Of a stretch of DNA of 64,000 nucleotides, positions 40,444-59,943 are shown piece after piece. The notes below the pieces were generated by a model. The model had not been told where the DNA came from. It ran no database searches and saw only the letters and a program-made list of their open reading frames with translations. A program made the position numbers and the translations under genes. The stretch is from Convolutriloba macropyga (Eukaryota): NCBI RefSeq assembly GCF_964194025.1, contig NC_134479.1:23126001-23190000 (forward strand), read 5' to 3'. Every line of letters starts with the position of its first letter. Position 1 is the first letter of the stretch.

Positions 40444-40745
40444 TGTAGAAGTTGAAATACTGAATGTACGCCTCCTGCCAATCAGAGACTGAGACGACAC
40501 TATTCTTTTTTATATAGCGCTAGTACAACTGGCAACAGTCAGTTTATTAGATAGTTGCACGATGTGTATACCATTGACTCTGGTGCTGTATTATATTACT
40601 AACGTAATAATAGAAGTTTATCTTCTGTTTTGTAGAGTCGGTTAGTCTCAGAGAACTAGGTAAGCCAACTTCGCACGCAGAAATATGTAGCCCCAACTCT
40701 TTATACCCTAAGGCTGAAAAAGGAGCGCGCATAGGGTCTGCCTTA
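40444..40745 (+). repeat. 5' LTR of Gypsy-type element
   Basis: Direct repeat of 59649-59943; followed by a degenerate PBS-like TGTGCGACCAGTG. Confidence 0.85.
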
Positions 40746-41199
40746 ACTGTGCGACCAGTGAAAGAAAAAATTCTAACCATAGAAAGAACTCACATAAAGC
40801 ACAATATTTTCTCTTGAGGAAAAATATAGAGCTAGAATTTTCTAACTTAATCTTCATTTATAAACCTAAATTTAGAAAAAAAAGGAAACACAATCCTATC
40901 TAATAACTAAACCCAAATTTATTCACAAATAAGCTACAAATATCAACTACGTTGGACACATATTCCGATGAAAACCAACTTTGTCTTCTTGGACAACAAA
41001 ATAATCGTTTAATCAAAGTCATAAAACATTTTGAGATCACAAAATTTTGAAGTGCGGATGACTTAAACTGCGGATGACTACTAAGCACAGCGCTTCAATT
41101 TGAAAATCATTATTTTGGTGTTGGGTAACAACTGTTCGCCTCTGCTAGTAAAGGTGTCACAGATTGCTGAACTGATTTTCTTTTAAATCGAATAGAGGT

Positions 41200-44100
41200 A
41201 TACGGTAAGAAAATCACAAAAGGCACAGTTCTATCTTTGCAATCTCATCACGGATAGATTTACCTCCCTTTTTATGACACCTTATTTTGCCCACTATCAA
41301 ATACACTGCCGAGATTTGCACTACTGGCCGAGGATGCGGATCTAGACAATCGACATTTGAAATTTCAAAACAACTAGCATCAGCACCTAACATCGCCGCT
41401 GTACAGTCAAGAGCAGAAAGCGTGCACAAAAAGGCTAGACAAGAAATAAAAGGAATAACCATCTCAAAAAAATCCTAAGCTCTGTACAAGATGCAGGCTT
41501 ATCAGAAGATGAAATATTAGACGTAATTACACTCTTATCGTAGTACATACATCGTTTTAAGAAAATTCTTTTTGCCACTTTTTGCAATTACAAAATCAAT
41601 AGCGGAAAAATACCCTCATTTAATAGATAAACCACCGGAGGTACTACAATATCTTTACGATCCATTTTGGTTCACGGAAATCATCGTAATTATTGCAGAA
41701 GGACCATCTCAAACTATACAAAAATAAAAAAAATTGACCACTCACGAGTCACATTGCGATATCGCAAGGCCAATAACCAGAAATGAAGGTAAAGACTTTT
41801 CTGGACGCGTCATCAAGTGAACAAAACTTACGATCCTACATTAACAACCGATGAAAACAAATCCAAAAGAAAACAATGAAACAGATTTTAACCCCACACT
41901 ATTAGATGATGGATCAAAATTTTTATCACGAACCGCGAACAAACTATCACTAATTGACCACCAAAATAACATAAACAATACGAATAATAAAAATCATTTT
42001 GAAAAGTATCTAAATCAACAACCAGAAAACTCAACTAAACTAACACAAAGATCAAATCTTCTAAACGGTACCATTCCAACATTACCTAATTTAAATACAC
42101 ACTTAACTCGCTTAAAACGACAAAATTTAGTACACTTGAATACCAAACGAGTAATCTTAAATACATCCATTCAACAGTCATCAACAAATAATAAAAATAA
42201 ACAACTTACTCAACAACAGATAGTGAACTTTTTCAGACGTTTTACTTCACAAAACAATCATGAAACAACAAACACTTCGACACCGTATTTCTTACAAGCA
42301 ACGTCAACACAACCACCTTGTCACAACTCCAAACGATGTACCCAACTCCAAATGACCACAACTCCAAATAACGTACTCTTTCCTAGGAGGCCCATCACAC
42401 ACACAGGAATCCTTGCGACCATTTAATAGTGACGACCTAACATATCATTCAGAATATTTCCTTATTGTTATTACAGCAAATATGGTCATGACAGCAAGAC
42501 CAAAACAGTTTGAGTCGCCGTATCATGAAGCGCAAAAACAACTGACTTTTGACAAGAAGTTTGAAATACATTTGATAATCAACAATGGCCGAGTCATTCC
42601 AAAAATAATTTTAGAAAGCATCACTCGTGGTTTGGAAGAACAAATTAAAACGTTAGCCCCTCAAAAAGAACAAATGGCTAAAAAAACATTTGTTAGTAAC
42701 TCTCCAGATTTGCAAATGCACAAATGAGTGATGCACTACTCGGAGCACTAGATCCACATCTAGCGCGATTTTCTCTGGAAAAGATAGCTAACCATAAGCA
42801 AGAGCATTAGAATAACAGCTTCCGTTTGCTCAATTAGTATAAAAGATACATCAAGAGGATATCAGAAGAACACATATCGATCAACAAAAAATTAAAACGA
42901 ATTCCACTATTTCTCTCTCAATAAAGAGTATTTCAAGAGAGAAAAATATAATCTCATAGTAGATGATAATCAAACTATGAAGCAAAACATAGCTTATGGG
43001 ATCACTGTACTCAATTGCTGAGTACACAAGTAGAGTACATCGACCACACAATTTTTCAAACGATCCGAATTTTGAAATAACACAGCCATTCTAAAAATTT
43101 TGTAAAAATGTTTACGCTCAGGACATAGTAAATCAAATTGATTTGACAGACGATACACAAAACCGCTGGAAAATTCTAATTTTCCGAAACAAACGTTTAA
43201 TCAAGCTTTGAAAGAAATCAAATTCAACAGGTAACATCAAAAGAATGACTGGCAAATCTTTATCATTAACTTATTGATCAATGAGATAATCAAGACACTT
43301 CTCGACACAGGAGTCTTAACCGAATTTCTGGTTCAAACCCAAAACCAAATTATGGAAACAGTTTATTTGAAGCACCAAGCACATCGGGTGCATCAAACTA
43401 AAAAGCACAAAACTTCAAAAAAAGCAAACCGAAAAGCAATAACAATTATACTTCTAAGTCACGAACACAATCACCTAATTATAGGAGATACGATAATTGC
43501 TCTCAGCTACCGTTCTCAGGCAATTGCTACAAAACTGTGCAAGACTATATTAACTCATTTTTAGACCGAAGACAAACAGAAGACATTAAATTTCACTCTG
43601 AATCTACGGAAACTCAAAGTTTTTCATATGATTAATTACTTGAACAGCAGTTCAACGACCTACGTTTAGAGTCAAACTAAGATAAACAAGACGAAAACTT
43701 TAATTGATAAGAAAAACGCAACACTGTCACTGAAGAATACATTCCTTCGACTTCGTGTAAGAGTAATATTTGGGTACTACCCTTTACTTTTTTACACAAC
43801 AGACAGCTGATCATACTAGATCAATATATCCATATAATTTTGAGATTGATATTTTAATCGATTCCGGGGCTACGCTAAATGTACTTCTTAAATCATCAAT
43901 GCCGCCAACATATTATCCACGACAATTTCCAGTCATTGGAGATTTTTGTGAAATACAATTTAGTGAAATACAATTTAGTGAAATACAAAACTAAATTAGT
44001 TTTCTCNNNNNNNNNNNNNNNNNNNNNNNNNNNNNNNNNNNNNNNNNNNNNNNNNNNNNNNNNNNNNNNNNNNNNNNNNNNNNNNNNNNNNNNNNNNNNN

Positions 44101-58122: not shown

Positions 58123-59062
58123 ATGAAATTTTTTGAGGATCACCCTGACACCACAGATGTCAACCTACCAACCTCTTGGTTTAACGAGCGCTCACCAATC
58201 CCTCCCAAGATCGTGCCGACGGAGTATGACCTCGTCATCCTGAACAACGACGAAATTCTGCCTCTTAGGCCGCTGTTATTGGTTCCTTCAGTGTAAGAAC
58301 AAGTTTGCGAGACGCAGACACCGGCTCTCTTCACGAAGGTGAACGATGCGACATATTTGCGGGTGAACTCTCTGCCTTCACCCGCAATTTCCTCTTCTTC
58401 TTCGGGTGAACAACTCTCACAGCAGCCATCAAATCTCTCACAGCAAAGTTCATTGTGGGCAGATGAAGTTGCGGCCGATCAATCTATTCGCTCGACACTG
58501 GCGACAGCAGTCCCCAAATTTGCCTTCACAAATGGATGTGAGCAAGCAGAACCTTAAAAGGAAGCTTACGTGGATGCTTCATACAATTCACAATAATTTT
58601 TGTTCTACGCCATTTCCATCTGACGAACAGTCTAAGGCACATCAATTTGAGGTTTCAGTACCAAAATAAGATCCTCGTACTACCTCATCTATGTATTGAT
58701 CCTAGCTATTGCGAAGGGACGTTGGGGAACCTTGACCTGACCAACAATTACTTCATCTTCAGCCCCTTTAACGCTAGGACACACCGCCCCAACATTTTTC
58801 CGATCGACTATGTCCAGTGCGTAGAAAGAGGCTACAAAAAGTGCATGTGTGGACAAACCTTCATTCTCCTCCACAGGTACTGGATTGCGAACAAGCATTC
58901 AAAACTGAGAGCCATTTGCCGAGTGACAATATATCCAGAACCACATTGCTATACTGATCTGCACCCCCGGGTTCTTCTTTTCTAGCAAGGGACAAGGAGT
59001 TTCTTGACTTCTTCCTGTACCCTGTCGATCCGGCCTCGAACTTTGAATTCAAGTATCGCTAA
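58123..59062 (+). pseudogene. Env-position accessory ORF of the Gypsy element (~310 codons, disrupted)
   Basis: Visibly GC-richer block starting TTTCACTTTCAG|ATG. MKFFEDHPDTTDVNLPTSWF.. is in frame with ORF 58339-58557, then a Cys/His-rich segment (58647-58985). Confidence 0.5.
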
Positions 59063-59648
59063 GGGTCACCGGCCCACCCCCAGGGTTACTGTTAGTACAA
59101 ACTGAGACCACAGTTCTCAAAACTCACAAAATTTACTTCCATATTTTTTGTTTGATTTTTTCTTTACTCTCATTTCTTTTTAAATTCCTTTTCGCTTTTA
59201 GAACAATTTTTTTTCTTGTTTCCTCCGGTCGGAGCTCACCCAGTAGAGATTAAACTTTTATAACGTTCAAAGTGTCAAGTAGCTCACATATTAGCTAATG
59301 ACGGATTCTAACCGGAAGGTAAGCCGATCGACACAACTTCTGTAAAGGAGATTAGCTGAAATCTCCTTGTACAACCAACAGCAACTACAGAGTGAAACCT
59401 TCCACCCAGCTGGCTATCAACCTCACCAAAAGACATTGGGACACAACTGGATACTCTGACAGGACTGACGTTACAGGCTAGCACACCCTATTACTGTATC
59501 CCTTAAAAACCCTACACCCGGAAAGATGTGGATCACCCACTGACGACTCTAGACACAATATTCACCTGTTAGGGTTCTCAGACAACGACACAATTTACCA
59601 ATTCCAACACTCAACGAGGATCACAAAGAACTCTAAATCCCAATTGGA

Positions 59649-59943
59649 TGTAGCAGTAGAAATCCTGAATGTACGCCTCCAGCCAATCAGAGACAGAGAA
59701 GACACTAATCTAATAAAGTAGCGCTAGCACAACTGACCACATTCAGTCTATTAGATGGTTGCACGATGTGTATACCATTGACACCTGTGCTGTATTATAT
59801 TACCACCGTAAGTTTATCTTCTCTGTTTTATAGAGTCGATTAGTCTGAGAGAACTAGGTAAGCCTACTTCGCGCGCAGAAATAAATAGCCCTAACTCTTT
59901 ACACCTTAAAGTTGTAAAAGGAGCCCCCATAGGGTCTGCCTTA
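59649..59943 (+). repeat. 3' LTR of Gypsy-type element
   Basis: Direct repeat of 40444-40745, followed by the GTTT TSD. Confidence 0.85.

Follow-up and report, generated by a model that had tools for sequence, protein, structure and literature searches.

Anakin elements of the BEL/Pao group, described by Dezordi et al., reportedly carry a chuvirus glycoprotein. Among Ty3/gypsy elements, an envelope (env) gene of the gB type is carried by the 'ancient errantiviruses', which were collected in a screen that, according to the available text, admitted POL-ENV gaps of up to 1 kb and regions of up to 10 kb (Chary and Hayashi, eLife, PMC13524379). Two giant types are outlined in the accessible part of PMC6431247: planarian Burro has up to 25 kb of internal sequence and an open reading frame (ORF1) of about 4,900 amino acids (aa), in which env sits in the same reading frame between gag and protease and in which BIR, BCL2, MATH, and ankyrin domains occur; plant Ogre has an internal region of 11–13 kb, and its long terminal repeats (LTRs) of 1.9–6.5 kb account for its size. 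The same source indicates that additional ORFs, either following env or separating it from pol, are known in general. Here, we analyzed a stretch of 64,000 nucleotides from Convolutriloba macropyga (contig NC_134479.1, positions 23,126,001 to 23,190,000; hereafter the window), in which an element spans positions 40444 to 59943. A preliminary description had presented it as a giant Gypsy-type element reminiscent of Ogre or Burro. In our best reading, the element is retrovirus-like, not giant: with a probability of roughly 0.8, it represents a single, long-dead Ty3/gypsy insertion with an envelope gene, arranged as LTR-gag-pol-X-env-ORF4-LTR, with pol in the order protease (PR), reverse transcriptase (RT), RNase H (RH), and integrase (IN), and with a native length of about 13–14 kb. 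Its features are as follows.

40440..40443, plus strand: 5' target-site duplication GTTT, read from the sequence
40444..40745, plus strand: 5' LTR, 302 bp, TG...TA, with a TATA-like site at 40511 (LTR self-alignment)
40746..40760, plus strand: degenerate primer-binding-site-like stretch directly behind the 5' LTR, read from the sequence
41629..43162, plus strand: broken gag of the Retrotrans_gag family, with a CCHC knuckle at the end of its relatives (PF03732 relatives; mapping of P0007)
43163..44943, plus strand: pol copy A, with gag-pol linker, protease DSG motif, deleted RT, and start of RNase H (self-alignments; RVP)
44944..47396, plus strand: pol copy B, with RT remnant, RNase H, and an integrase core with an internal deletion (self-alignments; RT_RNaseH_2)
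47397..51703, plus strand: pol copy C, the most complete run of gag end, PR, RT, RH, and IN (RT_RNaseH_2, rve, foamy-virus integrase)
52250..54024, plus strand: block X, a possible decayed accessory ORF, start approximate (open stretch; contig depth; P0059)
54025..54120, plus strand: truncated first env start (27/32 residues identical to P0155)
54117..55656, plus strand: second, partial block X from a divergent subfamily (distance of 0.279 to the first copy; P0059)
55657..58170, plus strand: broken env-like gene, putatively for a class III, chuvirus/gB-like fusion glycoprotein (tblastn of P0155; PF24664 on P0155)
58147..58982, plus strand: ORF4, a Pro/Ser-rich putative accessory ORF behind env (20 of 137 relatives; joins with the env tail)
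58983..59648, plus strand: 3' non-coding region without a clear polypurine tract (purine scan)
59649..59943, plus strand: 3' LTR, 295 bp, TG...TA, with AATAAA at 59880 (LTR self-alignment; contig ends)
59944..59947, plus strand: 3' target-site duplication GTTT, read from the sequence

In the 3' part of the element, several ORFs had previously been left unrecognised. Pfam searches with 72 stop-free ORFs of this cargo gave no match over the cut-off. The stop-read-through frame 55801-58554 was then compared with 1.84 billion representatives (E ≤ 1e-3), yielding 137 relatives, of which 117 matched P0155 and the other 20 corresponded to ORF4. A profile built from 25 of the relatives led to longer proteins labelled PF24664 (Monjiviricetes_fusion), whose cluster includes uninterrupted members of 911 aa; the uninterrupted relatives P0154 and P0155 are 99% alike. 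In tblastn, aa 6-899 of P0155 (911 aa) aligned with 55657-58170 (E 1e-105, 26–46% identity), and the alignment was colinear over 871 of the 911 residues. The gene is interrupted by at least three frame changes and many stops, 10 in the first block alone, and contains a (CT)n tract at 56591-56653. P0155 itself scored 53 bits on PF24664, for which the cut-off is 27 (E 1.9e-14), and scores among the relatives were 53–57 bits; the family was matched by 7 of the 80 aligned env members. A simple hydropathy window scan of P0155 indicated a signal-like stretch at aa 3-21 and a membrane segment at aa 720-742, consistent with a signal peptide, an ectodomain, and a transmembrane segment, and the protein has 13 cysteines and no R-X-K/R-R site. 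As judged by homology, the unrecognised ORFs at 55657-58170 are pieces of one broken env-like gene, leaving block X and ORF4 unexplained, and the product would be a chuvirus/gB-like glycoprotein of class III type, an assignment made through the relatives. Like the env of gB-type errantiviruses, the gene lies downstream of pol, inside the LTRs, and on the same strand. This copy does not hold gag, pol, and env intact together.

The carrier of this gene was examined by its gag and pol. The ORF 42356-42724 matched five Retrotrans_gag proteins (P0001-P0005, PF03732) with 35–41% identity, and P0007, an uninterrupted gag relative of 558 aa, mapped with aa 22-552 onto 41629-43162. Behind gag, the protease motif, RNase H, and integrase follow each other in the Ty3/gypsy order, with scores that are weak owing to decay, e.g., for RVP on pol copy A (E 0.029) and foamy-virus integrase on pol copy C (E 0.002). 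Within pol copy C, a tandem repeat of 121 bp occupies 51398-51638. A sequence search of the PDB with the RNase H fragment gave no match. Peptidase_A17 and DUF5641, the signature of BEL/Pao, were absent from the ORFs of the element, which is thus not placed in BEL/Pao. Because its gag belongs to PF03732, its RNase H is of the RT_RNaseH type, and Peptidase_A17 and DUF5641 are lacking, the carrier can be classed as Ty3/gypsy-like (Metaviridae), in keeping with the order of gag followed by PR-RT-RH-IN and with the LTR pair and target-site duplication. Both gag and env presumably resemble proteins abundant in acoel genomes, a likeness that serves as a lead only.

The boundaries given in the preliminary description, namely LTRs with TG..TA ends and a GTTT target-site duplication (TSD) bracketing 19.5 kb, proved correct. 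In blastn, the LTRs aligned with 83.9% identity over 304 columns (E 1e-88); identity at ungapped sites was 87.0%, corresponding to a Kimura two-parameter (K2P) distance of 0.143. Both LTRs begin with TG and end with TA, and GTTT is present on both sides, a pairing that would occur by chance with p of about 0.006 for two random 4-mers in the flanks. Assembled contigs were available from the runs X1, X2, and X4 of one study, X4 being a second sample, and from X5 of another study. Contigs leaving the window exactly after 59943 numbered 88 in X1, 95 in X2, and 108 in X4, and this position is a family-wide LTR boundary. In each run, about 100 contigs have loose ends similar to the leader that follows the 5' LTR; the letter agreement of these ends (0.39) is low, as expected from mixed flanks. 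Since the contigs of three runs exit the window right after 59943, TA is most likely the genuine right end of the family rather than a decayed CA of this copy. No polypurine tract was found next to the 3' LTR, in line with the earlier observation: the best purine-rich 15-mer (12/15, at 59616) stops 18 nt short, and the absence of a tract says little about the family because this copy is too decayed. No tRNA genes that could be compared with the primer-binding-site-like stretch were found within the window. The LTRs differ by 22 transversions and 16 transitions, and the pol duplicates are likewise transversion-rich, an excess that is unusual for methylation-driven decay.

Self-alignment confirmed the pol duplications that had been noted before: segments of the gag end and protease, of RT and RNase H, and of integrase are present two or three times. 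The duplications make up 6.1–6.4 kb of the 19.5-kb span, and subtracting the duplicates leaves 13,130–13,387 bp. The native length is therefore about 13–14 kb, which is longer than the usual 5–8 kb of Gypsy elements, as had been claimed, and far below the range of Ogre and Burro; the element is not natively giant, and that label was withdrawn. K2P distances between the pol duplicates were 0.052–0.102 (5–10% diverged), all smaller than that of the LTRs, and one in-frame stop codon is common to all three RNase H copies. On these two grounds, the pol segments were duplicated after inactivation: duplication took place in situ, post-mortem, and later than the LTRs diverged. A second duplication, which had been missed, lies within the cargo (52637-54119 versus 54117-55859) with a K2P distance of 0.279. 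As the divergence decreases from the cargo duplicate (0.279) through the LTRs (0.143) to the pol duplicates, the cargo duplication appears to be older than the insertion. We ruled out that the duplicates are an artefact of assembly because the copies are 5–28% different and because contigs of X1 reproduce 51965-59853 without differences, save one gap at a microsatellite.

The two env starts are unequal, the first being identical to P0155 at 27 of 32 residues and the second at 14 of 32 over the same residues. In addition, 92 of 107 database fragments have greater similarity to P0155 than to the sequence of the window. Two subfamilies thus meet at about 54120. This copy is a fossil and probably a recombinant one, and nothing indicates that it serves the host. 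In active members of the family, reverse transcription would be primed by a tRNA, integration would duplicate 4 bp of the target in spite of the TA right end, and the class III-type envelope might let particles fuse with other cells, e.g., from soma to germ line. During reverse transcription of two co-packaged RNAs from different subfamilies, a template switch out of register could have repeated the env start together with block X prior to insertion; insertion and decay would have followed, and unequal recombination would then have multiplied the pol segments in the dead copy. The template switch provides the simplest history, given a matching TSD and a cargo duplication that predates the divergence of the LTRs. 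An alternative that we regard as improbable is that two independent insertions of related subfamilies, LTR-gag-pol-X and X-env-ORF4-LTR, recombined ectopically and that the GTTT match arose by chance. It would fit the distance between the two blocks of X and env start, which is twice that of the LTRs, the sharp inequality of the env starts, the great abundance of LTR-family sequence, and an empty-site test against a paralogous lectin-like locus, in which no match was found across the insertion point. However, it requires the chance match of 4 bp, whose probability would be higher given a sequence preference of integration, whereas the template switch before insertion accounts for the divergent blocks and the matching TSD together.

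We considered it highly unlikely that the element is natively giant in the manner of Burro or Ogre, with tandem pol and cargo repeats as part of the family structure. The 19.5-kb span would agree with such a structure, and the cargo duplication, if it predates insertion, could have become fixed in one subfamily; however, the pol duplicates are of later origin than the LTRs and have a stop in common, the LTRs themselves are short, and searches gave no BIR, BCL2, MATH, or ankyrin match. Furthermore, contigs of other copies join the first env start directly to the env body (joints 54092-55961 and 54099-55867), and 5 of the 10 contigs of the P0146 env cluster are 14.2–17.5 kb long, which is a weak indication in the same direction.

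Sharing of the 3' region among copies, which the preliminary description had proposed for examination, was found in the 137 relatives, in contig depth, and in joins between env and ORF4. Summed contig depth on the LTR was about 37,000, approximately three orders of magnitude over unique sequence, a value that is not a copy number. Across the cargo, depth in X4 exceeded the single-copy level in 18 of 19 bins (96.8–4928, compared with about 15–30 for unique contigs); it was mostly modest, about 100–450, and peaked inside block X (4928, bin 52741-53128). In X1, one contig extends without a break from env as far as the 3' LTR. ORF4 begins in the env tail, and env-ORF4 adjacency is common to several copies because the database proteins P0009, P0127, and P0135 span both. 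Thus, env and ORF4 are shared family-wide. The contigs of the env, gag, and ORF4 database proteins had no length in common. Separately, X4 contigs of single-copy depth covering 58338-60562 differ at scattered sites in ORF4, in the 3' region, and in the flank, as would be expected of an allele of this insertion.

That the 3' region is an unrelated insertion into a plain gag-pol Gypsy element, either an endogenised chuvirus-like glycoprotein or a BEL/Pao 'Anakin'-like piece, has very little probability: chuvirus-like glycoproteins are known as endogenous viral elements beside fragmentary Gypsy sequences and in BEL/Pao (accessible part of PMC10084718) and BEL/Pao remnants occur elsewhere in the window, but the element contains no second LTR pair or BEL/Pao domain, env lies on the pol strand in the canonical position and belongs to a large family with uninterrupted members, and the adjacency of X and env (P0059) and of env and ORF4 recurs in other copies.

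Several observations weigh against the reading of a single env-bearing Ty3/gypsy insertion. Approximately 1 kb within the element is read as N, and most of this falls in the RT copies. In pol, RT_RNaseH_2 on copies B (E 9e-5) and C (E 2e-4) and rve on copy C (E 7e-4) stayed under their curated cut-offs. The class III assignment passes through relatives because the N-terminal env frame of the window itself had no match to PF24664, and the match in the relatives is partial, covering profile positions 311-494 of 653, with an additional N-terminal match below the cut-off on P0143. The nearest Atlas clusters to env were chuvirus-like, GP64, and rhabdovirus glycoproteins at 0.85–0.87, which is below 0.9 and serves as a lead only. 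An AlphaFold model from the alignment of 80 env sequences reached a pLDDT of 33 and gave no support for a class III fold; its Foldseek matches (TM ≤ 0.1) were discarded as meaningless, and PDB sequence searches with env gave no match. No codon periodicity was seen across the X duplicates (p 0.26). With regard to sharing, run X5 covered the LTR and hardly the cargo, X1 is possibly the source sample, and no other full copy was recovered from metagenome, viral, and prokaryote genome collections, so that the linkage of pol, X, and env is seen only here.

Block X occupies part of the interval of about 2.3 kb between pol and env and contains an open stretch of 114 codons at 52355-52696. P0059, in which X adjoins an env start in another copy, maps with its N-terminus at 53728-53934 in the first X and with aa 1-96 at 55316-55594 in the second. 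Block X may code for a protein, although its stop-free ORFs and read-through frames had no match in Pfam and no usable one in the Atlas. A Cys/His-rich frame of 147 aa at 58542-58982, in a different frame from the Pro/Ser-rich part of ORF4, is probably the end of ORF4. Its similarity to P0111 is weak, as 4 of 1000 shuffles reach the score, and P0131 and P0120 give no support; in a homologue search with this frame, 0 of 5 candidates were upheld. Read-through frames of ORF4 had no match in Pfam, and an Rfam search gave no match.

Other features were observed outside the element. On the minus strand, a BEL/Pao remnant with detectable DUF5641 and Peptidase_A17 (35.9–37.7 kb) lies at 35403-38149 and includes two repeats, 35403-35849 and 37697-38149, that are 96% alike. 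Another repeat pair (80%; 11199-11520 and 16881-17200) surrounds decayed ORFs at 11199-17200, resembling another LTR element; two ORFs tested within it had no Pfam match. The paralogous minus-strand exons at 23089-23513 and 39647-40056 are 67% alike, the second lying 0.4 kb from the 5' LTR; they had no Pfam match, and we take their EPN motif to be C-type-lectin-like. Along with the BEL/Pao remnants, these lectin-like exons suggest that the host is an invertebrate animal. A near-perfect palindrome of about 236 bp at 26461-26696 is possibly a miniature inverted-repeat transposable element, and a tandem array with a 33-bp unit occupies 25455-25824. To the right of the element, interspersed repeats lie at 60765-62150, of which the part at about 61980-62150 has a very high copy number, and numerous contigs enter and leave at 62038-62083. 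A minus-strand frame of 153 codons at 1430-1891, without a Pfam match, presumably resembles Polinton-like capsid fragments.

Compared with described systems, the element works like the gB-type env-carrying 'ancient errantiviruses' and probably belongs with them. As in the elements covered by the available text of PMC13524379, the order is GAG-POL-ENV, env has a signal-like N-terminus, one membrane segment, and no obligatory furin site, and it belongs to a multi-copy chuvirus/gB-like family in which it is uninterrupted (here, in the relatives). Unlike those elements, this one has about 2.3 kb with block X between integrase and env, ORF4 behind env, TG..TA ends, and a native length of about 13–14 kb, and the copy is broken. 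Elements of this layout were probably filtered from that screen because of its gap limit of 1 kb and region limit of 10 kb, and acoel names are absent from the available text and seven supplements of PMC13524379. Anakin carries the same Pfam glycoprotein family on an LTR retrotransposon; in contrast to it (PMC10084718, accessible part), the element has a PF03732 gag and RT_RNaseH-type RNase H, with neither Peptidase_A17 nor DUF5641. Like Burro, it is Gypsy-like, with env homology and accessory coding capacity, and like Ogre, it has extra ORFs without known function and an internal region of 11–13 kb. Unlike Burro, however, it is about 13 kb long, has env behind integrase, and has none of the domains BIR, BCL2, MATH, and ankyrin, and unlike Ogre, its LTRs measure 302 and 295 bp and its extra gene is an envelope; the element is thus a member of neither type (PMC6431247, accessible part), contrary to the likeness suggested earlier. 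TGTA termini are a motif listed in the available part of the LTR_retriever preprint (10.1101/137141) for plant elements, 89% of them Copia, in contrast to the env-bearing Gypsy-type element of an apparent animal described here. In the open literature, as distinct from Repbase, Dfam, and subscription papers, no description of a gag-pol-X-env-ORF4 layout was found. We tentatively propose, as a possibility somewhat short of even odds, that the element represents an undescribed, very abundant 'complex' retrovirus-like Ty3/gypsy lineage with a class III env between the accessory genes X and ORF4, asymmetric TG..TA ends, and uninterrupted env members, that its spacing hid it from the errantivirus screen, and that retroelements with an envelope may not have been described before in the host lineage.

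These results give the supposed giant an identity that can be tested. Should the layout hold family-wide, Ty3/gypsy elements with an envelope would include forms in which env is flanked on either side by accessory genes, and screens with a 1-kb limit between pol and env or a requirement for TG..CA ends would undercount such elements. The finding bears on how strictly integrase requires the CA end, and on how frequently and how early class III fusogens were captured by retroelements.

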